Assembly: GCA_025453395.1 (NCBI GenBank)
Contig: JALOQK010000001.1
Location: 74,244-138,243 of the forward strand
Length of the DNA: 64,000 nt
Origin: Candidatus Omnitrophota bacterium
GTDB lineage: Bacteria; Omnitrophota; Gorgyraeia; Gygaellales; Profunditerraquicolaceae
Direction: 5' to 3'
The notes beneath the pieces are model-generated. The model saw only the letters and a program-made list of their open reading frames with translations, was not told the DNA's origin and searched no databases. The translations under genes were made by a program, and so were the position numbers. This document shows positions 1 to 56,942 of the stretch, piece after piece (position 1 is the first letter of the stretch; each line of letters begins with the position of its first letter).

Positions 1-70
1 CGTAAATTCTGTTCCAGAATTTACTTCGCACGCTTCGGGATAATTAAATTTTCCCGTAGGGAAAATTTAA

Positions 71-584: not shown

Positions 585-1457
585 TTAAACTGTTTCCGCT
601 GTAAACACGCTTGACTCCAGCTGTGCCTTAAGCAGCTTTGCCCAAGCTTTTGCTTCTCTCTTTGAAGAAGCAATCGCAAAGACTGTCGGGCCGCTGCCCG
701 ACATTAATAACATATCCATCCCCAAAAGCCTCATTTTCTCTTTAAGAAAACGCACTTTTGGGTACAGTTTAAAAGTAACCGGCTCTAAGCCGTTAAAAAG
801 CAACTTTTTTAAAGAGGACTTATCTTTATCCCTTTTAATCAGGGTAATTAGTCTATCATCATATCGCGGCATTGTCAATCCTGAAAGTTGGCTCCAATTA
901 CGGTAAATAACTCTGGTGGAAACCGCTATTTTGGGCACTACAATCACAAGGTAAAGCTTAAAATGCTTCAGGGCGCGGATAGGCGCTATAATCTGCCCTC
1001 TTCCTTCTGCTTTAGCAAAAGAACAATCGTAAATAAAGAAAGCTACGTCACTGCCTAATAAAGAGGCCAAAAAAACAAGCTGCTTTTTAGCTAAACCTAA
1101 TTTCCAGAGCCGGTTTAGCCCCATCAAAACACCAGCAGCGTTACTGGAGCCTCCGGCCATACCGCTTGAAACCGGGATATTTTTCTTAATGATAATATCC
1201 ACGCCTTTTTTTATTTTATATCTATCTTTTAGAAGTTTAGCGCTTTTAAAAGCAAGGTTGGCATGGTCTTTGGGGATTTCCCGGGAAGAAGTAATAATCT
1301 TTATCTTATCATCAGAACGGGTTTTAAGGGTGATCCTATCCGCCAGGCTTATCCTATGGAAAATAGTTGATATATCATGAAAGCCGTCCGGGCGTTTGCG
1401 CAGGATATTAAGATGGAGGTTGACTTTGGCGTGGGAATCAAAAGATATTCTAGCCAT
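585..1457 (-). CDS. ispE: 4-diphosphocytidyl-2-C-methyl-D-erythritol kinase
   Basis: GHMP kinase motifs (VPVSSGMAGGSSNAAGVL) and an N-terminus (ISFDSHAKVNLHLNIL) typical of IspE. Confidence 0.85.
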   Translation of the reverse strand: MARISFDSHAKVNLHLNILRKRPDGFHDISTIFHRISLADRITLKTRSDDKIKIITSSREIPKDHANLAFKSAKLLKDRYKIKKGVDIIIKKNIPVSSGMAGGSSNAAGVLMGLNRLWKLGLAKKQLVFLASLLGSDVAFFIYDCSFAKAEGRGQIIAPIRALKHFKLYLVIVVPKIAVSTRVIYRNWSQLSGLTMPRYDDRLITLIKRDKDKSSLKKLLFNGLEPVTFKLYPKVRFLKEKMRLLGMDMLLMSGSGPTVFAIASSKREAKAWAKLLKAQLESSVFTAETV

Positions 1458-1469
1458 GGGGAGAGGATG

Positions 1470-2396
1470 CTACTTAACTATGCTAAAAACTGCTTTTTCT
1501 ATATCAAAGCTGGTCAGGTTATATTCTTTCAACAGGTCTTGAGGCTCACCCGACTGTCCATACCTATTCTTAATGCCTAAACGCAATACCTTGACCGGAT
1601 GATTTTCCGCGACCACTTCATCAACCGCCGAAGCTAAACCTCCAACGGTAGCATGCTCCTCGCAAACTACAATGCCTTTAGTCTCTTTGGCAGCGCTAAT
1701 AACCGCATCCTGATCTATAGGGCGGATAGTATGCATATTAAGGACTCTTGCGTTTATCCCTTTTCCTGATAATAATTCAGCGGCAACTATCGCCTCATAA
1801 ACCATAACCCCGCAGGCGATAATGGTGATATCATCACCCTGCCTTAAAACCTGCGCCTTGCCGAATTGAAATTCAGGCTTATTCTCAATAGTAGTAAACT
1901 TTGGCCTGCCCAGGCGCACATAAAACGGGCCGTTTATTTTAGAACACGCGATAATCGCTTCGCGAGTCTGCGGCCCATCACAAGGCACGATAATATTCAT
2001 ATTGGAGATAACCCGCATCAAAGCTATATCTTCGATGGCCTGATGGCTTGAACCGTCGGGGCCGACAGTAATCCCAGCGTGGGTGGCAACGATCTTAACA
2101 TCGCAATTATTATAACTTACGGTATTTCTTACCTGATCCCAGGCCCTGCCCGAAGCAAAAATAGCGAAAGTGGAAACAAATACTTTCTTGCCGCAACTTG
2201 CCATGCCGGCGGCAGAGGCCATCATATTCTGTTCGGCAACCCCAAAATTAAAAAACCTCTCGGGAAACTGCTTAGCAAAAACGCTTGTACGGGTTGAGCC
2301 GGAAAGATCAGCGTCAAAAACAACCACATTGGAATTTTGCTTTCCTAATTCCACCAAGGTATTCCCATAAACATCACGTTGATATAAAGCGCTCAT
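1470..2396 (-). CDS. tkt: transketolase, C-terminal (pyrimidine-binding) subunit
   Basis: Transketolase C-terminal half motifs (FNFGVAEQNM, THAGITVGPDGSSHQ); split-gene arrangement with the upstream N-terminal subunit. Confidence 0.85.
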   Translation of the reverse strand: MSALYQRDVYGNTLVELGKQNSNVVVFDADLSGSTRTSVFAKQFPERFFNFGVAEQNMMASAAGMASCGKKVFVSTFAIFASGRAWDQVRNTVSYNNCDVKIVATHAGITVGPDGSSHQAIEDIALMRVISNMNIIVPCDGPQTREAIIACSKINGPFYVRLGRPKFTTIENKPEFQFGKAQVLRQGDDITIIACGVMVYEAIVAAELLSGKGINARVLNMHTIRPIDQDAVISAAKETKGIVVCEEHATVGGLASAVDEVVAENHPVKVLRLGIKNRYGQSGEPQDLLKEYNLTSFDIEKAVFSIVK

Positions 2397-2442
2397 TTTT
2401 TATGCTTTTTCTTTTTACCTTTTTACTTTTGACTTTTTACTT

Positions 2443-3264
2443 TTACTTGAGTTCCTCAAGTGCCTGCGTTGTTTCTTCCTTAGTCGGGGCGCGGCCGTGA
2501 AAATCACAAGAATTCTCCATAAAAGAAACCCCCTTGCCTTTTACGGTGCGCCCGATAATAATTGAAGGCTTACCCTTAAAGCCTTTTGCTTTTTCATAAG
2601 CCTCTAATATTTGACGCATATTGTGTCCATCAATATTAATCACATTCCAACCAAATGCCTGCCACTTATCCGCTAAAGGCTCCAGATTCATTATCTCACA
2701 GGTGCGCCCGTCAATCTGAAGCCCATTATAATCCAAGATTGCGCAAAGATTATCAACCTTGTAATGAGCGCATGCCATAGCCGCTTCCCAAATATTTCCT
2801 TCTTGGGTTTCTCCGTCGCCTAAGAGCACATAAACCCGGTAATCTTTTTTATCAAGCCTGCCAGCTAAACTCATCCCTAAAGCTACAGATAATCCCTGGC
2901 CCAAAGAACCAGAGGCTACTTCTACCCCGGGGGTCCTTTTATCCGGATGCCCTTGAAGCATAGAGCCTAACTGGCGCAAGGTAAATAATTTATCCTCGGG
3001 GAAAAAACCTCTTTTTGCCAATACCGCGTACAGCAAAGGGCAACAATGCCCTTTAGATAAATGAAACCTATCCCTATCCGGATAATGCGGCTCTTTAGGG
3101 CGGTTGTTTAAGACATGAAAAAATAAAGCTGTAACCATGTCCGCGGAAGAAAGGCTGCCTCCCGGATGCCCGGAACCGGCTTTAGCTATCATCTGGACAA
3201 TTAAGCGGCGGATTTCTTTGGCTTGTAACTCTAAATCCTTTATGGTCTTATCATCAAAAGGCAT
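2443..3264 (-). CDS. tkt: transketolase, N-terminal (TPP-binding) subunit
   Basis: GHPGGSLS, LLGDGE and NIWEA motifs of the transketolase TPP-binding domain; 273 aa, adjacent to the C-terminal subunit. Confidence 0.85.
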   Translation of the reverse strand: MPFDDKTIKDLELQAKEIRRLIVQMIAKAGSGHPGGSLSSADMVTALFFHVLNNRPKEPHYPDRDRFHLSKGHCCPLLYAVLAKRGFFPEDKLFTLRQLGSMLQGHPDKRTPGVEVASGSLGQGLSVALGMSLAGRLDKKDYRVYVLLGDGETQEGNIWEAAMACAHYKVDNLCAILDYNGLQIDGRTCEIMNLEPLADKWQAFGWNVINIDGHNMRQILEAYEKAKGFKGKPSIIIGRTVKGKGVSFMENSCDFHGRAPTKEETTQALEELK

Positions 3265-3265
3265 A

Positions 3266-4228
3266 TTATTTCTCTAATCCTTCTATTTTCTCTTTGACCG
3301 CCTGCTGTTTGGGATCCATCTTAAGAGATTTCTCCCAATTCTCTTTCGCGTTTACCTTGTCGCCTAAAACAAGATACAGATCACCCAGATGCAGGTAGAT
3401 TTCCGGGTCTTCTAAAGATGAGGCGGCCTTTTCTAAAAGCTTTTTCGCGTCTTCGTATTTTTTCTGCTTAAAATAAACCCAACCCAAACTATCAATATAG
3501 GCAGGATTATCCGGTTCAAATTCCAACGCTTTTTTTATTATTATTTCGGCTTGATCTAAGTTCTTTCCAGCCTGAGCATACATATACCCCAAAAAATTAA
3601 GCGCCTGATGAAAATCAGCTTTTATCTCTATGGCTTTTTTTAAAGAGCCTTCAGCCTTTTCAAATAAAGCTTGGCTGTAATACGCATCGGCTAACTGCAA
3701 ATAAATTAACGGCTGGTTGGGAAAGATTTTAAGCATTTCCTGGCATAAACTTTCCGCTTCTTTGTATCTGCCTTGGCGCGCGTAGAGGCTGGCCAAAACT
3801 TCTTGGATCTTTAAATTATCCGGTTGCAGCACTGAAGCGTTCTTAAGGGCCCTTTCATAGGACTTATCGGATTTTATCTTATCGTCTTTCAGGCCGTAAA
3901 GCACAGCGCAGACGAAATTTGCCTCTACAGAATCAGGCTGCAACTTTGAAACAACCTCAAGATGAACAATAGCTTTATCTATCTGGTTATTCTTAATATA
4001 TATGGCAGCTGAATTTAAATGAGCCAGGCTATTATCAGGGTCAAATTTAAGGGATTTTTCGTATTCAGCCAAGGCCTGGGTATCTTTATCAAGGTTTGAA
4101 TAATAAGAACCCATGATAAAATGGGACAGCGCTTCCGGAAACCCCCTATCGGAAGCAAAAACAGCTGACGCGCAAAATAATAGAAAAACAAAGAAAGGGC
4201 ATGCTTTTCTTTTTAAAAAAACAAACAT
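3266..4228 (-). CDS. TPR-repeat protein with signal peptide
   Basis: Hydrophobic N-terminus followed by multiple 34-aa TPR-like repeats (AxxYxxxGxY patterns). Confidence 0.6.
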   Translation of the reverse strand: MFVFLKRKACPFFVFLLFCASAVFASDRGFPEALSHFIMGSYYSNLDKDTQALAEYEKSLKFDPDNSLAHLNSAAIYIKNNQIDKAIVHLEVVSKLQPDSVEANFVCAVLYGLKDDKIKSDKSYERALKNASVLQPDNLKIQEVLASLYARQGRYKEAESLCQEMLKIFPNQPLIYLQLADAYYSQALFEKAEGSLKKAIEIKADFHQALNFLGYMYAQAGKNLDQAEIIIKKALEFEPDNPAYIDSLGWVYFKQKKYEDAKKLLEKAASSLEDPEIYLHLGDLYLVLGDKVNAKENWEKSLKMDPKQQAVKEKIEGLEK

Positions 4229-4257
4229 AATGTTTTAATGGATGCAACTGACTACTA

Positions 4258-4388
4258 AGAATGAGACTTGGGTAATGGGTAGTAAGCTTAAGATGAGGGT
4301 TAGGTTGAAGAATAATTTAAAGATTTTTCCCCACAACCCACCCACACTCTCGACCCACAACCTACATCCCACGACTCACTCTTATCCT
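4258..4388. repeat. Interspersed element family A, copy 1 (G/T-rich arm followed by C/A-rich arm)
   Basis: gggtaatgggtagtaag...gagggttaggttg...ccccacaacccacccacactctcgacccacaacctacatccc; near-copies at 53286-53405 (same orientation) and 5755-5885 (inverted). Confidence 0.7.
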
Positions 4389-4535
4389 AAAAAGTTACCT
4401 TAGCTGATAAAGGCTAACCCCAGCTTCTCTTCTTCAGGTGGCGAAGACGGCGGCGCATCTTTTTTCTTTTATGCGTGCGTATCTTCTGTCTTTTTCTTTT
4501 TCTGCCGCAAGGCATCGTTTACTCCCTTCGATCGT

Positions 4536-4712
4536 AAAACTAAAAATTAAAAAGTAAAAGCGCAAAACTATAATTTAAAACTAAAAATTAAGAAAAATGC
4601 ATAAAAAACAAAAGATAAAAGTGTAAAAGATTGTATTAACGTTTTTAGTTTCGTTTTTTTAGTTTTAAATTTTAAGCTGTAGTTTTTAATTTTGCGCTTT
4701 ACGCTTTACATT
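4536..4712. repeat. Heptamer-built AT-rich palindromic element, family B copy 1
   Basis: Left arm aaaagtaaaagcgcaaaactataatttaaaactaaaaatt mirrors right arm agtttttaattttgcgctttacgctttac; abuts the hisG stop. Confidence 0.7.
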
Positions 4713-4713
4713 T

Positions 4714-5595
4714 CTAATATATGACTTTGTTCAACGGATACTCTATAATCCCTGTAGCTCCGGCTCTTTTTAATTCCGGAATAAGCGTGCGCACAACCTT
4801 CTCGTCTATAATTGTTTCCACAGCCACCCATCCGTCTTCTGAAAGGCTGGACACTGTAGGCTTTTTTAACGCGGGCAAAACAGCAAGGATCTTTTTTATG
4901 TCATTTTTCCTTACGTTCATCTTCAGGCCCACCTTAGATTCGGCAGCAATAGCTCCTTGAAGTAAAACCGCGATTTCCTCCATCTTTTGCCTTTTCCATG
5001 GGTCTTTATACGCCTTCTTATTGGCAATAAACTGCGTGGTGGATTCGCAAATCGTATCAATTATCGCCAGCTTATTGGCCTTCAAGCTTCTTCCGGTTTC
5101 AGTCAATTCCACAATCGCATCTACCAGGCCGGAACTTACCTTTACTTCAGTAGCGCCCCAGCTAAACTCCACATCCACATTGATCTTGTTTTTCTTAAAA
5201 TACTGCTTTGTCACATTAACCAATTCTGTGGCAATGCGCTTGCCGCTTAAATCTTTTGCCGATTTAAAACCCGACGCCTCCGGAACAGCCAAAACCCACC
5301 TAACCTTGCTTAAACTCTGTTTAGCGTAAACTAAGTCCGTAACCCGGACGACATCTGAAGCATTTTCCAATATCCAGTCATTGCCGGTAATCCCGCAGTC
5401 AAGCGCCCCGTCAGCGACATAACGCGACATCTCCTGCGCGCGTAAAAGCACCGGCTCTATCTGTCCATCGTCAATAGAAGGAAAATAAGACCTCTCCGAG
5501 GGCAGATTTACATTAAACCCTGCCTTGCGGAACATCTTGAAAGTCGCCTCCTGGAGGCTGCCCTTTGGTAAACCTAATTTCAGAATTTTATCCAT
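4714..5595 (-). CDS. hisG: ATP phosphoribosyltransferase, long form
   Basis: 293 aa with the HisG catalytic region ([18 protein letters not shown]) plus a C-terminal regulatory domain. Confidence 0.8.
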
Positions 5596-5754
5596 AGTAA
5601 TTTAAGCCTTTTGTTAAGTTTTACACTCGCAAAGGCTGTATTATACCTTCCGGATAAGTTTTTGTAAAGAAAATTTACCTGTTTTTATTTACAAAATGTC
5701 CCCTTTGCCTTATAATAGGAGAACACTACTTAAAATGAAATTAAACCTAAATTA

Positions 5755-5885
5755 AGTCATCCGAGAATGAGCCGTGAGTTGTGAGCCGTGAGTTTGGGGC
5801 TAGAGTGAGTTGGGAGGAATTTATATTTAAACTCATCCTTATCCTCATCCCAAACCCAATACCCATTACCCATTTCTCATCCTTA
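5755..5885. repeat. Family A element, copy 2 (inverted relative to copies 1 and 3)
   Basis: gagtgagttgggagg...cccaaacccaatacccattacccatttctcat is the reverse complement of the A1/A3 arms; sits in the divergent hisG/ppiD-like promoter region. Confidence 0.65.
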
Positions 5886-5926
5886 TAAATCAAAGAATTT
5901 ACAATTATTTTATGGAGAAAATATAA

Positions 5927-7357
5927 ATGCTCAAATTCCTTCGCGACCGCAAAAATTCAAAAAAGATCTGGATATTCTTGGCCATTGTCATAGTGATCCC
6001 CTTTGCTTTCTGGGGGGCAGGATCAGTTGTTTCTGATAAAAACTACGCCGGCTACGTTGGCACTATCTGCGGAAGAAAAATCACAAGCTCGCAATTTCAG
6101 GATTCTTATAACGCCACAGCCGCCAGGCTGCGCCTGCAATTCCCGGATCAATTCGATCAATTAAAAGACTCCCTGGACCTTGAATCCCAGGCCTGGGAGA
6201 GGCTGGTACTTATCAGCGAAGCCAAAAGGCGCAATATCAAGGTAACAGATCAAGAAGTTATAAAAGATATAACCGCCAACCCCACTTTTCAAGGGAAAAA
6301 CGGCTTTGATGATTCCGCCTACAAACATATTATAAAATATTACCTGCACAGCTCACCACGGGCATTTGAAGAACAGACCCGGGAAAGTTTAATGCTTGCC
6401 AAATTATATGATCAGGTCACCTGCGTTGTAAAATTAGACGACGAGCAATTAAAAGAAGAATACCGCAAAGCCAACGAAGAATTAAGCATCTCTTACATAA
6501 GCGCGCAATACGCAGAGCTTGAAAAGAATATCCAGGCCGATGATGAAACTTTAAAATCATACTTTCAAAACAACTCCATAAAATTCAAAGAGCCGCTGTC
6601 CTTTAATTTAGAATACGTCAAAATAGAGGCCGAGGAAAAAACAAGCCTTAAACAGAGAAGCGAAAAGATATTCCTTCTGGCGCAAAAAAATATCCCTTTA
6701 AAGAAAATAGCCCAGGAAAATAAACTTACCCTTAAGGAAACCGGCCTGTTCCCGGAAACCGGCCCCATCCCGGAAATTGGATGGGCAAAGCAGATAATCA
6801 ACGCGCTGCCTAAAATAAAGCCTGACGAATACCTGCCCCCTTACTGTAATCAACAGGCCTGTTTTTTAGCGAAAATAAAAGTAAAAATGGACCCCTATAT
6901 ACCGGAGTTTACAACCATCAAGGATAAAATAAAAATCATCTTTTCCAGAGAAAAAGCCAAAGAACAAGCTAAAGAAAGAATTGAAAAATGCCTGGCGCGC
7001 CTTAAGGAACAGCCGGATTCAGATATTTTTGAAACAACTGCCGTGGAAAACGGGCTAAAATACGCCTCCACTTCCTTTTTTAAATTCGCCAGCTACATCG
7101 AAGGCATTGGCTCATCCTCTGAATTCTGGTTAACAGCAGAAAAATTACAACCAAACAAGGCCAGCGAAATTATCTCTACCCCCACAGCGTTATTTATTAT
7201 CCGTTTAAAAGAAAAAAAGGAAGCGGATTGGAATAAATTTGAAGAAGATAAGAAAACATTCTCGGAAAAAATACTTTCCGATAAAAAAAATGAATACTTT
7301 ACCTCTTTCTTAAAAGAACTTGATAAAAAGGCCTTTTTTAAAACAAGCCAAAGCTAA
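5927..7357 (+). CDS. Periplasmic chaperone, PpiD/SurA-N-domain-like, membrane-anchored
   Basis: N-terminal signal-anchor (IWIFLAIVIVIPFAFWG), then a SurA-N-like helical region; length and organisation resemble PpiD. No clear parvulin catalytic motif seen. Confidence 0.5.
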   Translation: MLKFLRDRKNSKKIWIFLAIVIVIPFAFWGAGSVVSDKNYAGYVGTICGRKITSSQFQDSYNATAARLRLQFPDQFDQLKDSLDLESQAWERLVLISEAKRRNIKVTDQEVIKDITANPTFQGKNGFDDSAYKHIIKYYLHSSPRAFEEQTRESLMLAKLYDQVTCVVKLDDEQLKEEYRKANEELSISYISAQYAELEKNIQADDETLKSYFQNNSIKFKEPLSFNLEYVKIEAEEKTSLKQRSEKIFLLAQKNIPLKKIAQENKLTLKETGLFPETGPIPEIGWAKQIINALPKIKPDEYLPPYCNQQACFLAKIKVKMDPYIPEFTTIKDKIKIIFSREKAKEQAKERIEKCLARLKEQPDSDIFETTAVENGLKYASTSFFKFASYIEGIGSSSEFWLTAEKLQPNKASEIISTPTALFIIRLKEKKEADWNKFEEDKKTFSEKILSDKKNEYFTSFLKELDKKAFFKTSQS

Positions 7358-21363: not shown

Positions 21364-22083
21364 CTAAAGCAAGTAATCCTTTTTCACGCGCTTAATACTT
21401 CTGAAGATGTTTTTCTTCACATCGGGGCAGACTTTTTCCAACTCTTGTATGATGCGGGAAATTCTGGTGCGATTTGAGATGTGGTAATTAGGACATGTGC
21501 AATCATAGGTTTTAAGTTTCTCGGATTTTACAAACCTCTCTATCAACCTTTCCTCCACATAGGCCAAGGGGCGGATAATCTGGATTTTCCCGTGGAATAA
21601 TTCCTGTTTGGGATTCATCGCGGAAATCTCGCCTTGAAAGAAAAGATTTAAAAGCGTAGTCTGGATAATATCGTCAAAATGATGCCCTAATGCCACCTTA
21701 TTACAACCCAACCTGTCCGAACATTTAAAAAGCGCCTTGCGCCTGTTCCAGGCGCACCAAAAACAGGTAATATCCTTTTTCTTCATCTTTCTTAACTCAT
21801 CGGTTTTTTCTATATGATACTCTACCCCCATTTTCTGGAAGTGCTTTTCCAGTTGTTTTGCCGATGATTTGGGATAACCCATGTCAATATGGATAGCTAC
21901 CAGGGAATATTTGATAGGGACAAAGGTCCTTCTGTCGTTTAAAACCCGAAGAAGCGTCAAGCTGTCTTTACCGCCAGAAACAGCAACCGCAACCTTATCG
22001 CCTTCCTGAAGCATATCATAGTCGGTAATTGCCTTTCCGATACGCTTGGAAACATAAAACTCTTCGCCCTTAATAATTGACAT
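21364..22083 (-). CDS. ttcA: tRNA 2-thiocytidine(32) synthetase TtcA (PP-loop ATPase)
   Basis: SGGKDS PP-loop and the CxxC pairs (CFWCAWNRR, CTCPNY) of TtcA. Confidence 0.8.
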   Translation of the reverse strand: MSIIKGEEFYVSKRIGKAITDYDMLQEGDKVAVAVSGGKDSLTLLRVLNDRRTFVPIKYSLVAIHIDMGYPKSSAKQLEKHFQKMGVEYHIEKTDELRKMKKKDITCFWCAWNRRKALFKCSDRLGCNKVALGHHFDDIIQTTLLNLFFQGEISAMNPKQELFHGKIQIIRPLAYVEERLIERFVKSEKLKTYDCTCPNYHISNRTRISRIIQELEKVCPDVKKNIFRSIKRVKKDYLL

Positions 22084-22127
22084 AGCGTTTAATTATACAG
22101 CCTCAAATTAAAAAACCAAACATATTT

Positions 22128-22236
22128 CTTAGCTAAAAAATTAAAGCGTAAAGCTAAAAACTACAGTGCAAAATTAAAAATTTTTAATTTTGAATTATGG
22201 TTTTTAGTTTTACGCTTTTAGCTTTACGCTTTTTGC
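22128..22236. repeat. Family B heptamer palindrome, copy 2
   Basis: aaagcgtaaagctaaaaactacag...ggtttttagttttacgcttttagctttacgcttt. Confidence 0.7.
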
Positions 22237-22240
22237 CTCT

Positions 22241-22453
22241 TTATCTACTGCGGCGTATGGCAGCTAAACTTATTTTTCTTTTTGTTTCGGCGGAATGGTG
22301 CTTTCCGTACATGGGGTTATTTTTGCCTTTAGTAGCTTGTGATATTTTAGCCAGGGAAGATTTCTTGTGGCGCTTTCCGTACATGGAATTACTCTTTCCT
22401 CTTTGCGCTAAACTGATCTTGCGCTTTGTCGCCTCTGACTGCTTTCTCTTCAT
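22241..22453 (-). CDS. Standalone NUMOD3-repeat DNA-binding mini-protein (70 aa), homing-endonuclease remnant-like
   Basis: Three tandem NUMOD3-type motifs: SEATKRKISLAQRGK..., KSSLAKISQATKGKNNPMYGK, SAETKRKISLAAIRRS. No nuclease domain in frame upstream. Confidence 0.65.
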   Translation of the reverse strand: MKRKQSEATKRKISLAQRGKSNSMYGKRHKKSSLAKISQATKGKNNPMYGKHHSAETKRKISLAAIRRSR

Positions 22454-22580
22454 ATGCCCTCCATTTGTTTATATTATACCCCAATCCAGTCAAAATCTCA
22501 ATCTTAAATTTTGCCAAAAAGGCTAACACCCGCGCAATACAAGTTAAGCGCGGGTGCCGGAACAAAACAACAATATCTAT

Positions 22581-22600
22581 TTAGCTAAAGCGTCTACAAA
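22581..22600. repeat. 20-bp direct repeat TTAGCTAAAGCGTCTACAAA (left boundary of 2-kb cassette)
   Basis: Identical 20-mer recurs at 24615-24634. Confidence 0.8.
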
Positions 22601-22603
22601 CTA

Positions 22604-23002
22604 TTAACTAACCTCAACGCCATGTTTTCGCTTAAATTCTTCTTTCACTTTGGGAAAAATCAGGAAAGATAATTTATAATAAGGTTTAATAAATAAGGAA
22701 TTTAACAACTGCGGGATTTCGCTTTCTGGTGTTACAGGCTCAAAGAAATATTCCTTGGCCTGCTCAACAGTTAAAAAAGGCTTCCAAAGAAGCATTCCAA
22801 CACCCATACCTAAAAATGTAAAAATATAAAGCATTGTTCCAGTTAATGGCAGGACTGCGCAAAAAATTATAAAACGGCTTGGTTTTGGCCCGAATATAAA
22901 TGCTAAAAAACAAATTGAGGCTATTATGCCTACGAAAATAACAAACATCATTACCAGAAAAGCTATAAAATTAACCAACTGTTTAAATTTTTCTTTGTTC
23001 AT
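22604..23002 (-). CDS. Small membrane protein, unknown function (132 aa)
   Basis: Three predicted TM helices; lies inside the direct-repeat-bounded cassette. Confidence 0.5.
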   Translation of the reverse strand: MNKEKFKQLVNFIAFLVMMFVIFVGIIASICFLAFIFGPKPSRFIIFCAVLPLTGTMLYIFTFLGMGVGMLLWKPFLTVEQAKEYFFEPVTPESEIPQLLNSLFIKPYYKLSFLIFPKVKEEFKRKHGVEVS

Positions 23003-23030
23003 AGTTATTTTCTGTCGGCCTTGCCTTTTC

Positions 23031-23582
23031 TTACTTGAATGATTTTAAGGTAAAGGCCCCTATTAAACCTAATCCAAAACATATTGGCACAGTATAAGCA
23101 GCCATCTTAGCAAGCGCCTTCATGGATTCACGAAATGAAACTTCCTTGGTGCCTTGGGCTTCCTTATTAAATACTTTTCTGGCTGGCGGGATACACCAAG
23201 CCAAAAGATTTGCTACTATCATCCCCAACGCCAGAGAAGAAAAAATAAGAGGCACCATAAGAAGAAAACTTGAAATAAAGCTTTCGGCGGACATCTTCCC
23301 TCTCCAGAATTGCGAAAACTTACCGGCATGTTCCGGGAATATCAGGATATGAATATTCCATAGTATTTTGAATTGAAAAACCCAACTAAACCATACACCC
23401 AACACAGTAAACGGTATTAAAATCAAATTCCACGGACTTTTTCTACGGCCGGCTCTTGCAGTAGCTTCGGTCAGATATTCCCCACCGGATTTAGTCTTGG
23501 AAGCTATATGCAAAATAACCCAGATAAGAATTATGCTAACAGCTGGAACAAGTAAACTAGATAAGATTTCTCTTTTCATCAT
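23031..23582 (-). CDS. Membrane protein, unknown function (183 aa)
   Basis: Four to five hydrophobic helices; lies inside the cassette. Confidence 0.5.
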   Translation of the reverse strand: MMKREILSSLLVPAVSIILIWVILHIASKTKSGGEYLTEATARAGRRKSPWNLILIPFTVLGVWFSWVFQFKILWNIHILIFPEHAGKFSQFWRGKMSAESFISSFLLMVPLIFSSLALGMIVANLLAWCIPPARKVFNKEAQGTKEVSFRESMKALAKMAAYTVPICFGLGLIGAFTLKSFK

Positions 23583-23696
23583 ATTTATTATATCGCTGTC
23601 AAATCAAAATCTCAATTATAATTTTCGACCGGTCACAAATTGTGACCAGTTCATCTATTTCAGCTTTTGCCACCTCCCTGCCCAGAAAGGGCACAT

Positions 23697-23724
23697 TTGC
23701 GCCTGCCTGCCGGCAGGCAGGCAA
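23697..23724. repeat. 28-bp perfect palindrome TTGCGCCTGCCTGCCGGCAGGCAGGCAA (family C)
   Basis: Exact dyad symmetry. The same 22-bp core is at 46663-46684, with variants at 33170-33191 and 24655-24690. Confidence 0.85.
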
Positions 23725-23786
23725 TTCCGATAAGCACAAGGTATCTACCTTATTAGACGAGGGAGATTGTTAAATCTTACAAAAAT

Positions 23787-23826
23787 AAAAAGGACGGTTA
23801 TTTTTAATAGAACCGTCCCTTTATTT
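23787..23826. terminator. Bidirectional terminator hairpin GGACGGTT...AACCGTCC, downstream of brnA
   Basis: aaaaaggacggttatttttaatagaaccgtccctttattt; A-run upstream, T-run downstream. Confidence 0.7.
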
Positions 23827-23836
23827 GCTTATTTGC

Positions 23837-24088
23837 TTATCTTACCCCTTGCGCCACCTGATGCAGGATTTCGGAAATAAAAGTTTGGTATTTAACGCCC
23901 AATTGCCTTGCTTTTTGCTTAATATGTTCCAGATCATAGCTATTCACCCGGATATTCAACACCGCGTCTTTCTTTCTGGCTTCAAGCATCCGCGCGATTC
24001 TATCGTATTCCTCTTTACCCGCAGGCACAAACTCTTCAAAATGATCTTCAATCCATTGCTCCTCTTTGGTTAATTTTATCTTTCTCAT
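23837..24088 (-). CDS. brnA: BrnA-family antitoxin (ribbon-helix-helix)
   Basis: 83 aa; LNIRVNSYDLEHIKQKARQLGVKYQTFISEILHQ matches the BrnA C-terminal RHH pattern. 4-bp overlap with the upstream toxin gene. Confidence 0.75.
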   Translation of the reverse strand: MRKIKLTKEEQWIEDHFEEFVPAGKEEYDRIARMLEARKKDAVLNIRVNSYDLEHIKQKARQLGVKYQTFISEILHQVAQGVR

Positions 24089-24345
24089 ATAATCACCTCT
24101 TTCTTATAAATTTTCTTGTATTTACGACACGGATATAATGTTTTTAAGAAAATACCTTCTGCGTCAGCAACAAATGGCGCCGCCCAAACATACCCATTAT
24201 GTTCATATATCAAAATCCCTTGATTGTTCCTGCTTGGATGTTGCAGGACATCTAAAAACTTTGCTTTGACTATTTCTTCGAATGAAACGCCACGTATGCG
24301 TTTTAATCTTGCACTTTTTGTTACATTCCATCTGATTGCCTCCAT
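24085..24345 (-). CDS. brnT: BrnT-family toxin (DUF497 RNase)
   Basis: 86 aa; W..K...N..KHGVSFEE-like N-terminus (RWNVTKSARLKRIRGVSFEEIVKAKF); toxin-first gene order typical of BrnTA. Confidence 0.75.
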   Translation of the reverse strand: MEAIRWNVTKSARLKRIRGVSFEEIVKAKFLDVLQHPSRNNQGILIYEHNGYVWAAPFVADAEGIFLKTLYPCRKYKKIYKKEVII

Positions 24346-24442
24346 AAAATTGTCGTGCCGCTTGTTGTATATACAATTGTATTATAAAGAGACCTCCTTG
24401 TCAAATTCTTTTATTTCCACGGCACCTACCCCCTTTCATCCA

Positions 24443-24585
24443 TATTAGACGAAGGAGGTTGCTGAATCTTACACAAAAAGTGTAGGCCAGCTTATCCTAT
24501 AAAGCTGGGCCTTACAAAAAAGTCACAAGGTCACAAAAAAAGGACGGCTCATTTTAATGAGGCCGCCCTTTATCCTGCCCTTAAT
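24443..24585. repeat. Second copy of the ~80-bp 'ttagacgaRggaG...aaaggacgg...ccgtccctttat' element (with insertions); first copy at 23745-23830
   Basis: catattagacgaaggaggttgctgaatcttaca...aaaaaaaggacggctcattttaatgaggccgcccttta aligns with ccttattagacgagggagattgttaaatcttaca...aaaaaggacggttatttttaatagaaccgtcccttta. Confidence 0.65.
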
Positions 24586-24614
24586 TGTTTTGTAATTTAT
24601 TGGAAGACTAGAGG

Positions 24615-24634
24615 TTAGCTAAAGCGTCTACAAA
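24615..24634. repeat. 20-bp direct repeat TTAGCTAAAGCGTCTACAAA (right boundary of cassette)
   Basis: Identical to 22581-22600. Confidence 0.8.
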
Positions 24635-24811
24635 TAATGAATTTTAAATTGTGGTTTTGCCTGCCTGTCTGCCGTAGGCAGACCTACCGGCAGGTAGGCG
24701 TTTTTCGCTTTTAGCTTTACGCTAACTAAGCTCTACCCGAGCTAGTGACAATCTGTCCTGCTTCGCCATTTAACTAACAAAATATGGTATGGCTTCGCAG
24801 AGACTGCGCCA

Positions 24812-26650
24812 TCATGCAAGTCTATTAGAATCGGCGATGGCTTGCTTTATCTTATCCGTTACTTTATGCTTAGCTAATTCTTCCAAAGAAAGCGGAAGAA
24901 CCAAAGACCAGTTGGTCTGATTGGTAGTTCCGGGAAAGTTGATGCGGTATTGGTAAGGATCACCTTTAAAAATGCCTCCCATAGAGAGTAAATCCGTGAT
25001 CAATTGGATGGAAAATATTGCGGAAGTTTCATAATTAAACTTTAACGCCTTTTCTACTAGCTCATCACTTGCTTCTTCTTGCATGACACCAGTCATTCCT
25101 AGAAGTTTCCAAAGTTTTTCTTTTTCCTGATAAGTATTCTGATACATCTCAATAAAGTCGCCGACTTCTTCTTTTCTTTTGCCTAAGATCCAAACCAAAG
25201 TATCAATATTATCTATTGAATTTTTCCAACGCAAACGCCCATGGCAGGATAACGCGGCATCAAAAAGTTTATCTTTAGTCAACTCGTAATCTATTCTTCT
25301 ATCCTGACACTTACAGGCAAAAAGCCCGTCGTCAATTGTGCCTGCCTCATATTTCCACCAGGCAGCGAAATTTGTCGTGTCATGAGTTGAGAGCATGGTT
25401 ACAGAAGTTTTACGATACTCATAAGCAGGCAAAAAATCATGCCGGTTGCTCCAATCCTTGACCCAGCGCGCCACATCATTACCCGGTATGCCCATATCAC
25501 GCAGGGTATCTGTGCAAACCTTAGGGATTACCCCTAGATCCTCAGCGCACAAAAGCATATCCGATGAATCAAGCATTACTGACAAAATATCCCGGCCCTG
25601 TTTGCCCCAAACATTTTCATCAACTGGGTCAAACGCGCCGCGGCTGCCTTTATTCTCTTCTGGGTCGCTATAAGGAATACTCCAAATTCTAAACAACCCC
25701 ACCACATGGTCCACGCGCAAGATATTATAGAAATTAGAAGCGTATTTAAACTTCTCGCGCGCGTACCTGTAATCATCTTTAGCGATATTCTGCCAGTTAT
25801 AAGTAGGCATGCCCCAACGCTGACCCCTAGAGCAATACATATCAGGAGGGGCCCCTGATGCAAATTCAAGCTTAAAGAATCCCGGATTAGCCCAGACATC
25901 CGCGCTGTCCCGCGACACCAGAATCGGAAGGTCCCCCTTCAGAAAAACCCCCTTAGAATTGGCATGTTTCAAAACATCATTTAACTGTTTAAAAGCTACA
26001 TACTGCAGCCAAACCTGAAAATCTATTTCCTGTTTATTCTTGCGCTGTGCATGCTCAAGGGCTTTTTTGTCACGGCTTGCCAAATCCAAATCCCAATCAT
26101 ACCAGGCGCGCCCGCCTTGTGTTGCCTTAAGCACTTTAAAAAAAGCAAAGTCCTCCAGCCAATAGCTGTTCTCATGCCGGAATCTTATTAAAGCCTTATC
26201 ATCGCAAGTGCCGCTTAAAGAAAATATCTTCCAGAATAATTCCATTTTCCTTTGTTTGATCCGGTAATCCAGGTTCTTCGCAGGCAAAGGAAATTCCGCG
26301 CGGATTTTTTCTATATCCTGTTTCACATGCTTGATCTGCCCTGCAGGCAATAAAGAAAATGATATATACAAAGGCTCAATAGCAAAAGAACTCAAAGCAT
26401 CATAGGGGCAATTAACCCAGCCCATTTCATTAAGCGGCAATAGCTGCAAAATAGAATTACCGGTCTTGGCGCACCAGTCCACAAACTTTTTTAAATCCGC
26501 GAAATCTCCTACGCCAACGCTATCGCGTGAATACAGGGAAAATAAAGGCAGCGCCACCCCTGCTCTTTTTCCTGTTCCAATCTTCTGCCACTTAGAAGCG
26601 GATATGGTATTTAAAAGCGGATTTTCTTCTGCGAGTTTTTTATCTGTCAT
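24812..26650 (-). CDS. malQ: 4-alpha-glucanotransferase (amylomaltase, GH77)
   Basis: GVALPLFSL, GDLPILVS and DHVVGLFRIW motifs of GH77; 612 aa with an N-terminal extension. Confidence 0.8.
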   Translation of the reverse strand: MTDKKLAEENPLLNTISASKWQKIGTGKRAGVALPLFSLYSRDSVGVGDFADLKKFVDWCAKTGNSILQLLPLNEMGWVNCPYDALSSFAIEPLYISFSLLPAGQIKHVKQDIEKIRAEFPLPAKNLDYRIKQRKMELFWKIFSLSGTCDDKALIRFRHENSYWLEDFAFFKVLKATQGGRAWYDWDLDLASRDKKALEHAQRKNKQEIDFQVWLQYVAFKQLNDVLKHANSKGVFLKGDLPILVSRDSADVWANPGFFKLEFASGAPPDMYCSRGQRWGMPTYNWQNIAKDDYRYAREKFKYASNFYNILRVDHVVGLFRIWSIPYSDPEENKGSRGAFDPVDENVWGKQGRDILSVMLDSSDMLLCAEDLGVIPKVCTDTLRDMGIPGNDVARWVKDWSNRHDFLPAYEYRKTSVTMLSTHDTTNFAAWWKYEAGTIDDGLFACKCQDRRIDYELTKDKLFDAALSCHGRLRWKNSIDNIDTLVWILGKRKEEVGDFIEMYQNTYQEKEKLWKLLGMTGVMQEEASDELVEKALKFNYETSAIFSIQLITDLLSMGGIFKGDPYQYRINFPGTTNQTNWSLVLPLSLEELAKHKVTDKIKQAIADSNRLA

Positions 26651-29825: not shown

Positions 29826-29912
29826 CTTAAAATTTAAAGCGTAAAGCGTAAAACCATAATTCAAAATTCAAAGTTTTTAGTTTTACGTTTTTCGCTTTAC
29901 GTTTTACGCTTT
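29826..29912. repeat. Family B heptamer palindrome, copy 3
   Basis: aaagcgtaaagcgtaaaaccataattcaaaattcaaagtttttagttttacgtttttcgctttacgttttacgctttc; overlaps the ilvC stop codon. Confidence 0.75.
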
Positions 29913-34872: not shown

Positions 34873-34892
34873 ATTTTACCTCCAAGTCACAA

Positions 34893-35028
34893 GTTAGCGT
34901 AAAGCGTAAAACGAAAAGTGTAAGACTATAATTTAAAATTCAAAAATTTTAAATTTTGCGCTATAGTTTTACATTTTACGCTTTTCGCTTCTGTTTTTCG
35001 CTTTTCGCTTTTCGCTTTTCGCTTTCTA
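34893..35028. repeat. Family B heptamer palindrome, copy 4, with (TTTTCGC)x6 tandem run
   Basis: gttagcgtaaagcgtaaaacgaaaagtg...gttttacattttacgcttttcgcttctgtttttcgcttttcgcttttcgcttttcgctttc. Confidence 0.75.
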
Positions 35029-36351
35029 GTCCGCGCCTTCTCCATCATGCACCACCTGCGAATCTTCTTTGGCTTTGCGCACAATGACCCTTTTTAAGGT
35101 TATATATTTATCTACCTCGGGCTTGGTATTTCCCACATTAAGCTGTTTGAATAAAAATTCAAATTTGGCTTCAATGTCGGAAGTGATCTTATCGCGGGTT
35201 TCTTTTGGTAGCCCCATAATCTGCTTCTTAAACGGCCCCAGGGCTTTTTTACGCGCCTTATAGAAAAACTGATCATCGCTTTCGCCTTCTTTTCTTTCGT
35301 TGGCGGCATTTACCTTAAGCCATTCGTAAATCTTATTCTTCAATTCCATGGGAAAATGCGCGCTGTCAAACATCATGTTCTGAAAACCGGTGGCCAAATG
35401 CACTTCGGCTGTTGTAACTTCAGGGAATTTATGGAATGCTTCGTCAGGAAGAGTAGATGCCCCGTGCTGCACCGCTCCTGCTAATCCATAATCCTTGCGC
35501 GCGATCTCAGAAATAACTCTTAATGCTTCAAAATCAAGCTTTACTTCCGCTACTCTTCCGTCGGGAAGCACTACCCCTCCGTGAGAAGTCCCGGTTTGGA
35601 TGCTTATCTTGCTAATCCCGGCTCTTCCTTTTCTTAGGCGCTGGGTGAACCCCTGCATAAAAGCGTGAAAATCTTCAGGAGTAGAATTCTTATGCCCCAC
35701 CTCTCCAATCTCTCCGCCCACAGAAACCTCAACCCCTCTGGGTTGTATTTGACGAATAAATTGGGTCAATTTCGCGCAAACTTCATAATTATTAAATTGC
35801 TGCTTCTTCAGGTCCTCTTTGGACAGATCCACCAATGTAGAGGAATCTATATCTATATTGTAAAACCCTGCGTCAATGGCATCCTGAATAAGCGCCTTTA
35901 AGGCGTCTAATTCCTTATCCGGGTTTTCCTGGAATTTCTTTAAATTTACCTGGGTGTGGTCAGCCTGAATAAACACCGGGCCGGTGTAATCTTCTTTTAC
36001 CGCCGCAGCTAAAATTACCGCCGAGAATTCCGCGGGTATCTGATTGGTATAGCCCATTTCAGATTTGGCAATCTCAAAAATAAACGCCCCGGCGTTATTT
36101 CTCTTGGCAACTCTGAATAACGCGCGCGCCAGATCATAGGTCATACTGCGCAAATTTATCGCCGGGACAGTAAAACCTTTGACTTCGCCTTTACCCATAG
36201 CCATATATAACTCATGGATACTTGAAGGATACACTCCTTTTTTATAGGCGATATCCACTATTTTCTTAGCTAAAATCTTTTTCACTGTCACATCGTCATT
36301 CATAATTAAGTCCATGGCGATGTTTTCAATATCAAGCGGCCTTCTTCCCAT
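35026..36351 (-). CDS. fba: Class II fructose-bisphosphate aldolase family protein (long form)
   Basis: 441 aa; TVPAINL and HGG-containing class II aldolase motifs; gene directly downstream of pfkA. Confidence 0.65.
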   Translation of the reverse strand: MGRRPLDIENIAMDLIMNDDVTVKKILAKKIVDIAYKKGVYPSSIHELYMAMGKGEVKGFTVPAINLRSMTYDLARALFRVAKRNNAGAFIFEIAKSEMGYTNQIPAEFSAVILAAAVKEDYTGPVFIQADHTQVNLKKFQENPDKELDALKALIQDAIDAGFYNIDIDSSTLVDLSKEDLKKQQFNNYEVCAKLTQFIRQIQPRGVEVSVGGEIGEVGHKNSTPEDFHAFMQGFTQRLRKGRAGISKISIQTGTSHGGVVLPDGRVAEVKLDFEALRVISEIARKDYGLAGAVQHGASTLPDEAFHKFPEVTTAEVHLATGFQNMMFDSAHFPMELKNKIYEWLKVNAANERKEGESDDQFFYKARKKALGPFKKQIMGLPKETRDKITSDIEAKFEFLFKQLNVGNTKPEVDKYITLKRVIVRKAKEDSQVVHDGEGAD

Positions 36352-53657: not shown

Positions 53658-53762
53658 TTTAGCTTAAAGCTAAAAGCGAAAAATTAAAAATCATAATTCA
53701 AAATTTAAAGTTTTTAATTTTACACTATAGTTTTTCGCTTTACGCTTTACGTTTTGCGCTTA
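53658..53762. repeat. Family B heptamer palindrome, copy 5
   Basis: ttagcttaaagctaaaagcgaaaaattaaaaatcataattcaaaatttaaagtttttaattttacactatagtttttcgctttacgctttacgttttgcgct. Confidence 0.75.
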
Positions 53763-56840: not shown

Positions 56841-56942
56841 AGTGTAAAATTAAAAGCGCAAAGCGTAAAATTAAAATTCAAAACTAAGAATTTTGAGCTT
56901 TAAATTATGGTTTTTAGTTTTTCGCTTTTCGTTTTTCGCTCT
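56841..56942. repeat. Family B heptamer palindrome, copy 6
   Basis: gtgtaaaattaaaagcgcaaagcgtaaaattaaaattcaaaactaagaattttgagctttaaattatggtttttagtttttcgcttttcgtttttcgctc. Confidence 0.75.

Follow-up and report, generated by a model that had tools for sequence, protein, structure and literature searches.

What does the DNA-binding module of a homing endonuclease do in a bacterium when it is encoded by itself, with no nuclease attached? The question is raised by a 70-amino-acid open reading frame within the 64,000-nucleotide stretch of a Candidatus Omnitrophota genome analysed here (the window). NUMOD3 is the minor-groove-binding α-helix module of I-TevI, I-HmuI and I-BmoI, the last of which has three predicted NUMOD3 repeats (PMC3664794). 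The original prediction, made from the letters of the sequence, read the open reading frame as an orphan set of such repeats and offered two answers: a decayed homing endonuclease that marks a past invasion, or a domesticated small DNA-binding regulator.

The open reading frame is present on the reverse strand as described, its translation being MKRKQSEATKRKISLAQRGKSNSMYGKRHKKSSLAKISQATKGKNNPMYGKHHSAETKRKISLAAIRRSR, and the three peptides that had been quoted as NUMOD3 motifs are exact substrings of it (residues 9–20, 34–51 and 56–68). The profile search that had been set beforehand as a check gave a strong match: the score for Pfam NUMOD3 (PF07460) is 88 bits (E = 3.7e-25), where the gathering cut-off lies at 20.4 bits; the match is in two stretches, the best of which spans positions 1–37 of the 37-position model. 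Judged by this score, the match is far above chance and the protein belongs to NUMOD3. To speak of three tandem motifs is reasonable: three predicted helix modules are joined by two conserved loops (Table 1), an anatomy that corresponds to two full Pfam repeats and an additional N-terminal helix.

The protein is small and very basic (8.0 kDa, pI 11.8, net charge +20), with 22 lysine and arginine residues against two aspartate and glutamate residues, and hydrophobic residues are almost nil; across the mini-protein family, net charges range from +18 to +29. The AF2 model has confident local helices (pLDDT 88) without a globular fold (pTM 0.42). Pfam and the model reveal no hydrophobic core and no effector, dimerization or sensor/ligand-binding domain, and both the helix–turn–helix (HTH; NUMOD1) and the zinc finger are absent from the 70-residue chain. 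Foldseek comparison of the model with the PDB gave no significant match, the method being uninformative for a non-globular chain; the alignment to 1i3j was likewise not significant (E = 7.9, 29 columns, r.m.s.d. 3.7), as expected for a short non-globular segment. The family sequence profile matches residues 40–69 of 1i3j_A (E = 2.3e-4), which identifies the mini-protein, at the level of the profile, as a homologue of the I-TevI segment that is known from structures to lie in the minor groove. The endonuclease profiles TIGR01453 (group I intron endonuclease, NCBIfam) and phrog_314 (PHROG ‘homing endonuclease’) match solely through their internal DNA-binding part; for TIGR01453, the match covers positions 96–157 of a 215-position model at 42.6 bits, below the 56.05-bit cut-off.

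An antisense open reading frame of 109 amino acids (22197–22526, forward strand) overlaps the gene and has no Pfam match. We rejected it as a real gene: its apparent conservation in four orthologous loci (L005, L007, L015 and L017) mirrors the conserved sense frame and is treated as an artefact.

The absence of a catalytic domain in frame, as originally stated, extends to the flanks and to the whole window. The NUMOD3 gene is separated by 150 nucleotides from the upstream gene and by 157 nucleotides from ttcA downstream, and six-frame translation of 21950–23050 revealed nuclease-like sequence in neither gap. A frameshifted nuclease domain immediately upstream, which had been named as the sign of a recent pseudogene, was looked for in all six frames and none was found. 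Pfam detects neither a GIY-YIG domain nor an HNH/His-Me finger motif in the 70-residue protein. A GIY-YIG hidden Markov model (HMM) made from full-length endonucleases, which detects the positive controls L023 and L036 at 94–118 bits, gave zero matches in all frames of the window, and HNH-type N-terminal queries re-matched only the NUMOD3 segment. Searching the window in six frames with the family HMM recovered the known open reading frame alone, with no second NUMOD3 gene. Nor was an intron or intein location seen, as the gene is intergenic with its own Shine–Dalgarno site and ttcA is intact, encoding 239 amino acids as do its homologues. The 70-residue protein thus lacks all of the defining features of a GIY-YIG or HNH homing endonuclease. 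Around the other examined orthologues, no GIY-YIG or HNH gene lies within about 5 kb, with the exception of one locus (L001) that has a stand-alone 89-amino-acid GIY-YIG gene 5.4 kb from the orthologue.

The label of orphan did not survive the homology searches. The first of these returned 17 proteins of 62–80 amino acids that are 57–81% identical and contain NUMOD3 only, and 334 relatives came from a profile search (E ≤ 1e-8). Pfam detects no nuclease domain in the best 120 of these 334; 83 of the 120 are 62–86 amino acids long, and all of the named proteins in that size range are Omnitrophota entries called ‘NUMOD3 domain-containing DNA-binding protein’. Proteins labelled in this way by NCBI in Candidatus Omnitrophota metagenome-assembled genomes (MAGs; for example, P0008, P0186, P0200, P0214, P0237 and P0256) are 62–86 amino acids long and 48–81% identical, with a common architecture and common invariant residues and essentially no difference from the window protein. 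By sequence, the window protein is one more member of this Omnitrophota family of NUMOD3-only mini-proteins. The NCBI name itself is an automatic, domain-based label.

Identity to the window protein in an 18-member alignment is 53–76%. Scanning one genome per species, we found an orthologue in at least about 24 other species-level MAGs, at one locus each among the 80 pattern matches listed; these MAGs carry the label Omnitrophota or, in the case of some bins with automatic names, Planctomycetia. Of 25 orthologues, 24 are intact (69–80 amino acids) and only one (L033) appears frameshifted. DPANN archaea and Firmicutes supply most of the remoter matches of the same scan; these remoter matches are 210–325 amino acids long, many with a GIY-YIG or HNH N terminus. 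Since each repeat adds to the score, long, multi-repeat proteins of the endonuclease type dominated a search of a representative library, which says little about the small family. Among uncultured viral contigs, the best 32 matches are all 194–469 amino acids long, several with a recognizable GIY-YIG N terminus, and none of the 32 is a mini form; matches in cultured phages are annotated homing endonucleases (33–48% identity). Given the length of the viral matches, the mini form is a cellular specialization and not a viral one.

The family is intact and under strong purifying selection. Where dS is measurable, dN/dS (Nei–Gojobori) ranges from 0.07 to 0.18 (L011/L012, 0.07 with dS 0.99; L016/L017, 0.077; L013/L018, 0.069; window/L059, 0.096; L017/L019, 0.18); most other pairs are saturated in dS, their proteins still being 60–88% identical. 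A Shine–Dalgarno-like site stands at the proper spacing in 22 of the 25 orthologues. Gene order is conserved in a clade of seven loci that includes Ca. Aceula, in which the order is aconitase, NUMOD3, three small genes, leuCD and aroC and the mini-protein is as conserved as its neighbours or more so (for example, 88% versus 79%, 81% versus 64% and 72% versus 63% identity), and again in a second syntenic pair (L021 and L026). The gene is therefore inherited vertically in at least two clades, and the selection figures, Shine–Dalgarno sites and synteny together are what marks a functional gene passed on by vertical descent. Beyond these two groups the genomic context differs genome by genome, with no conserved adjacent partner gene (blastp, E ≤ 1e-3, neighbours within 2.5 kb), and the window has no neighbours in common with any of the 24 orthologue loci. 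Relaxed selection, variable truncation, frameshifts and lost translation signals, the marks of a pseudogene, do not characterize the family. Of the two answers first offered, it is domestication that these data bear out.

In the window genome, the gene is borne on a variable island between malQ and ttcA (Table 1), which tempers, without overturning, the picture of a conserved host gene. The island also contains an 86-amino-acid gene and an 83-amino-acid CopG-type gene, and the genes for two uncharacterized proteins, of 183 and 132 amino acids, that look like membrane proteins. In the closest relatives as measured by TtcA (74–75% identity; L063, L064 and L065), malQ directly adjoins ttcA, with a gap of 21 nucleotides in the last two, and no NUMOD3 remnant is present at the junction. 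In a further genome (L062) the site is occupied by other accessory genes, one of them a transposase-type HTH gene, and the CopG-type pair alone (50–72% identity) is common to the two islands. Genes for an integrase, a transposase or replication were not found in the island of the window, nor was a tRNA found near it, and the orthologues elsewhere are linked neither to the CopG-type pair nor to the 183- and 132-amino-acid protein genes. What had been called a mark of past invasion is therefore correct in so far as the gene sits in an island that the closest relatives lack; the pattern is one of island variability, not of homing. The window TtcA is 100% identical to a protein of a Candidatus Omnitrophica MAG, and the approximately 120 relatives that rank next are Omnitrophota proteins. 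For a gene that encodes a core chromatin protein, it would be unusual to lie in an accessory island that the closest relatives lack at that site.

The NUMOD3 gene looks like an independent transcription unit in the window genome, judging from the signals around it. It is preceded by a Shine–Dalgarno sequence and by a site that resembles a σ70-type promoter in 11 of 12 consensus positions and from which transcription may start. Further upstream, a G+C-rich hairpin with an 11-bp stem (CACCCGCGC.../...GCGCGGGTG) and a predicted folding energy of −25.8 kcal/mol (z = −3.4) is probably the terminator of the gene for the 132-amino-acid protein, parting that gene from the NUMOD3 unit. In other genomes the NUMOD3 gene starts 9–45 nucleotides after housekeeping genes, so a strong promoter of its own would be specific to the window genome.

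Table 1. Features of the NUMOD3 gene, its protein and the surrounding island (nucleotide positions are those of the window)
Feature	Position	Strand	Basis or description
ttcA	21364–22083
Variable island, 2.7 kb	22084–24811	−	Between malQ and ttcA
Imperfect palindrome, AT-rich, 100 nt	22131–22230	.	Directly after the stop codon; 50-nt arms, 80% complementary
Coding sequence, 70-aa NUMOD3-only protein	22241–22453	−	Open reading frame with ATG start; Pfam
Shine–Dalgarno sequence, GGAGG	22458–22462	−	Read from sequence; 4 nt before ATG
σ70-type promoter-like site, TTGAGA-17 nt-TATAAT	22473–22501	−	Consensus scan; 11/12 consensus
G+C-rich hairpin (22525–22558) followed by U-rich run	22516–22558	−	RNA fold
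malQ (GH77)	24812–26650
Predicted basic helices	Residues 7–16, 31–40, 55–69		70-aa protein
Conserved loops, GKxN(S/P)MYGKxH	G19–H29, G43–H53		Join the three helices
Family invariants	G19, N22, G26, H29, G43, N46, P47, M48, G50, H53, K60		18-member alignment

The gene had been placed between a palindrome and a direct-repeat cassette. The palindrome is there, directly downstream; a cassette was not found by repeat search or TRF, and the upstream side holds only the terminator-like hairpin and the promoter-like site. The palindrome is built of 7-nucleotide units (AAAGCGT/AAAGCTA), is predicted to fold as RNA at −32.4 kcal/mol (z = −3.9) and is followed on the transcript by a U-run, which makes it terminator-like. 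Its core has 30 matches in the window where 0.74 are expected, and copies occur at 6–7 other intergenic sites, between co-directional genes. The repeat family was found solely in contigs of the organism of the window and not beside any orthologue. The specific link between protein and palindrome that the original prediction implied is accordingly rejected, the repeat being dispersed, confined to one organism and missing at the orthologous loci. Rfam returned only spurious microRNA-hairpin matches in the island, on this palindrome.

We propose that the family derives from the NUMOD3 module of GIY-YIG or HNH homing endonucleases and that it has been domesticated as a stand-alone, nuclease-free protein that binds the DNA minor groove. 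On balance, and with modest confidence, we take its role to be that of an abundant, low-specificity architectural (nucleoid-associated-like) or general DNA-binding protein and not that of a dedicated operon regulator. Such a general role is favoured by the lack of an effector, dimerization or sensor domain and of an HTH, by the lack of a conserved partner or target neighbourhood, and by the strong expression signals in the window genome; the preference over a specific regulator draws on these absences, on the variable genomic context and on the sequence-tolerant binding described for the parent module. Because it has no hydrophobic core and a net charge of +20, the free protein is probably disordered. 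It may be an extended chain that becomes ordered on DNA, laid along the minor groove as is the homologous segment of I-TevI, with each helix in or along the groove and each GKxN(S/P)MYGKxH loop tracking the backbone; the footprint would be roughly 15–20 bp. High abundance and low-specificity binding across the genome would be expected of such a protein; the net charge, the strong promoter-like site and the Shine–Dalgarno sequence in the window genome, and the lack of a partner or effector domain, support this indirectly.

Other explanations have to be weighed against this one. That the gene is the drifting C-terminal remnant of a GIY-YIG or HNH enzyme is a reading in which we place almost no credence. 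Its closest characterized relatives are indeed homing endonucleases (phrog_314, TIGR01453 and the phage matches), the gene lies in an island that close relatives lack and one orthologue (L033) is apparently frameshifted, but the other 24 are intact, dN/dS is low, with dS saturated, no nuclease remnant is present in the flanks in any frame, Shine–Dalgarno sites are conserved, synteny is stable in two clades, and the window gene has a proper start codon, a Shine–Dalgarno sequence and a promoter-like site. The selection and conservation data effectively refute the decayed-endonuclease reading. Alternatively, the protein could be the DNA-targeting subunit of a split nuclease, recruiting a separate GIY-YIG or HNH enzyme for homing, defence or repair. 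The modular build of homing endonucleases, in which a flexible linker joins the nuclease to the DNA-binding domain (PMC3664794), fits this idea, and the solitary GIY-YIG gene at the L001 locus could be such a partner; however, the window and the surroundings of the other examined orthologues have no such gene, no adjacent partner is conserved, and the protein consists wholly of DNA-binding repeats with no evident interaction domain, all of which makes this highly improbable. We consider it just as improbable that the gene is cargo of mobile or variable islands, serving in partition or plasmid stability or protecting sites against homing endonucleases. Its position next to the CopG-type pair, in a hot spot with other cargo in L062, and the varying context of most orthologues would fit such a role. 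Against it, the window island encodes no integrase or transposase and lacks replication genes, the orthologues show no linkage to the other island genes, the syntenic clades place the NUMOD3 gene among central-metabolism genes, and none of the best 32 viral matches is a mini form.

A sequence-specific transcriptional regulator is the most probable of the alternatives, although we regard it as unlikely. I-TevI represses transcription through its DNA-binding domain (PMC3384342); a NUMOD3 repeat of I-BmoI has been proposed to anchor at a specific base, G+7 (PMC3664794); and the strong sequence conservation of the family would fit a conserved target. Yet no neighbouring gene or upstream region is conserved across contexts as a target, unlinked targets being possible, and the protein has neither the HTH (NUMOD1) on which much of the specific binding by I-TevI depends nor a dimerization or ligand-binding domain. 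The parent module is also described, in the title of Bryk et al. 1993 (cited in PMC3664794), as making sequence-tolerant minor-groove contacts. A small basic protein that binds RNA or the ribosome, with the NUMOD3 scaffold re-used for structured RNA, is very unlikely. With a net charge of +20 in 70 non-globular residues it resembles small ribosomal and RNA-chaperone proteins, and in some genomes it has RNA-related neighbours (ttcA in the window; in L055, a methyltransferase of the RsmE type). However, these neighbours are not conserved, no ribosomal structure was matched significantly in the fold search (E = 4.5) and significant homology extends solely to a DNA minor-groove module.

A general DNA-binding protein, the reading that we prefer, can be set beside known systems. 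The closest is the central DNA-binding segment of I-TevI (PDB 1I3J/1T2T), in which the family profile aligns to GENNSFFNHKHSDITKSKISEKMKG. In both, a basic helix rich in S/T comes after a GxxN(S/P)(M/F)(Y/F)-x-K-x-H loop, and both are extended and non-globular. In I-TevI, a single NUMOD3 unit lies between a zinc finger and an HTH and is tethered to a GIY-YIG nuclease, whereas the window protein consists of three helices with two loops between them and has none of these other parts. I-BmoI (GIY-YIG) and I-HmuI (HNH) likewise use tandem NUMOD3 repeats for minor-groove binding of an extended site, and the number of repeats in I-BmoI, three, equals the number of helix modules in the window protein. 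Those enzymes are mobile phage or intron proteins of 200–300 or more amino acids, often present in multiple copies, whereas the 70-residue protein is chromosomal, under purifying selection and encoded once per genome among the matches listed. Retention by the host of a DNA-recognition part without cleavage, and the regulatory use of such a part, have parallels in WhiA/DUF199, which derives from LAGLIDADG enzymes, and in the autorepression by I-TevI (PMC3384342). WhiA keeps an inactivated nuclease fold together with an HTH, whereas the window protein has kept the minor-groove repeat alone, and a regulatory role for it would be conjectural. A functional analogy may also be drawn to HU/IHF, AT-hook proteins and the chlamydial Hc1, which are small, highly positive, non-enzymatic proteins that bind the minor groove or the backbone. 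They have no sequence or fold relationship to the window protein, in which Pfam detects NUMOD3 only.

In the searchable literature, we found no prior description of a conserved, nuclease-free bacterial protein consisting of NUMOD3 only and no functional study of the NUMOD3 mini-proteins labelled by NCBI; the sole nuclease-free NUMOD3 protein that we found discussed is the plant gene ClNUM1. The family was already known in the sense that public databases label it automatically; what appears to be new, as judged from that literature, is the NUMOD3 repeat alone as a conserved cellular protein. It is predicted to be a minimal natural minor-groove binder, with three repeats in approximately 8 kDa. 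Should it turn out to bind DNA and to be abundant in the cell, the few known kinds of bacterial nucleoid protein would be joined by another, and protein engineers would gain a modular scaffold for DNA binding of very small size. The I-TevI linker, to which the mini-protein is related, is already in use in engineered nucleases.

To our knowledge, Omnitrophota have no cultured model and their chromosome biology is poorly known. A bolder version of the architectural reading, which we consider distinctly doubtful, is that the family is a phylum-wide Omnitrophota chromatin protein and a new nucleoid-associated class, made up wholly of the domesticated homing-endonuclease repeat, in which an extended, disordered chain would coat or bend DNA, unlike the folded dimer of HU. 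A still more speculative extension is that, in the organism of the window, such a protein might preferentially recognize the A-tract-phased heptamer palindromes between genes. Even if the protein has only a minor accessory role, it holds a lesson for annotation: three family members (P0005, P0211 and P0223) carry the JGI label ‘group I intron endonuclease’, which is the wrong label for open reading frames of this kind.

Comparison of the window with four relatives (L062–L065) identifies the malQ–ttcA junction as an accessory-gene hot spot. The junction is empty in L064 and L065, where 21 nt separate the two genes; in L063 these genes are 525 nt apart, with only non-coding DNA between them. The window carries the island with the NUMOD3 gene at this position, and L062 carries at least 5 kb of cargo that includes a transposase-type HTH gene, ORF6N, a YgjP-like gene and a cupin. 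The junction contains neither an integrase nor a tRNA. Within the island, two genes that overlap by 4 nt, one of which has no Pfam match (86 aa) and the other of which is CopG-antitoxin/NikA-like (83 aa), look like a toxin–antitoxin-like pair. The same pair occurs in the L062 island at the same site, with 50% and 72% identity.

NUMOD3 proteins without a nuclease also occur beyond Omnitrophota. These include multi-copy proteins of 135–140 aa with four to five repeats in the Thaumarchaeota MAG SAT137 (L020, L031 and L032) and proteins of 54–55 aa with a single repeat in Bacteroidota/Prevotella (L043 and L047); a further NUMOD3-only class of 92–140 aa was recovered by profile search. The nuclease may have been lost from NUMOD3 proteins several times. 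Selfish proliferation of endonucleases is clearly seen on an Aenigmatarchaeota contig (L023), in which at least one of four GIY-YIG genes encodes a GIY-YIG–NUMOD3 protein, whereas the Omnitrophota mini-protein was seen in one copy per genome. The only nuclease detected near any orthologue is an 89-aa GIY-YIG protein in an Omnitrophota MAG (L001), which is probably of the common stand-alone type and unrelated to the mini-protein.

A single Omnitrophota orthologue, in L033, appears disrupted: its N-terminal half is that of a normal NUMOD3 protein and its second half is out of frame, reflecting either a real pseudogene or an error in MAG assembly. Inside the NUMOD3 ORF of the window, the two loops share 82% DNA identity over 33 nt. 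This identity is greater than amino-acid constraint strictly needs, and could result from an internal duplication of recent date, from gene conversion or from codon preference. The antisense ORF that covers the gene has no Pfam match, and in L005, L007, L015 and L017 its apparent ‘homologues’ likewise run antisense to the orthologue; because its conservation mirrors the NUMOD3 sense frame, we treated it as an artefact.

Coordinates of features in the window and in the compared loci
Feature	Location	Strand	Remarks
Island	window 22084–24811	−	malQ–ttcA junction; 2.7 kb
Two-gene pair	window 23837–24345	−	86-aa and 83-aa genes
NUMOD3 loops	window 22296–22328, 22368–22400
Antisense ORF	window 22197–22526	+	109 aa; spans entire NUMOD3 gene
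Palindrome copies	window 4534–4709, 22131–22230, 29828–29912, 34889–35030, 53665–53749, 56841–56940
Weaker palindrome matches	window 24702–24725, 11922
Junction cargo	L062, about 700–6000
GIY-YIG genes	L023 1766–6944		four in a row; one short archaeal contig
Stand-alone GIY-YIG protein	L001 363–632		89 aa; 5.4 kb upstream of NUMOD3 mini-gene
Disrupted orthologue	L033 5001–5228

Dispersed through the window are copies of an AT-rich, imperfect palindrome of about 90–180 nt, composed of phased 7-nt units (AAAGCGT, AAAGCGA or AAAGCTA), the core of which has 30 matches in the window against 0.74 expected. Rfam returned only spurious miRNA-hairpin matches for these palindromes. Among the 61 loci compared, the family is confined to contigs of this organism. 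Its sites lie directly 3′ of stop codons with co-directional genes on both sides, and the copies resemble either a REP/MITE-like element or terminators of unusual length.
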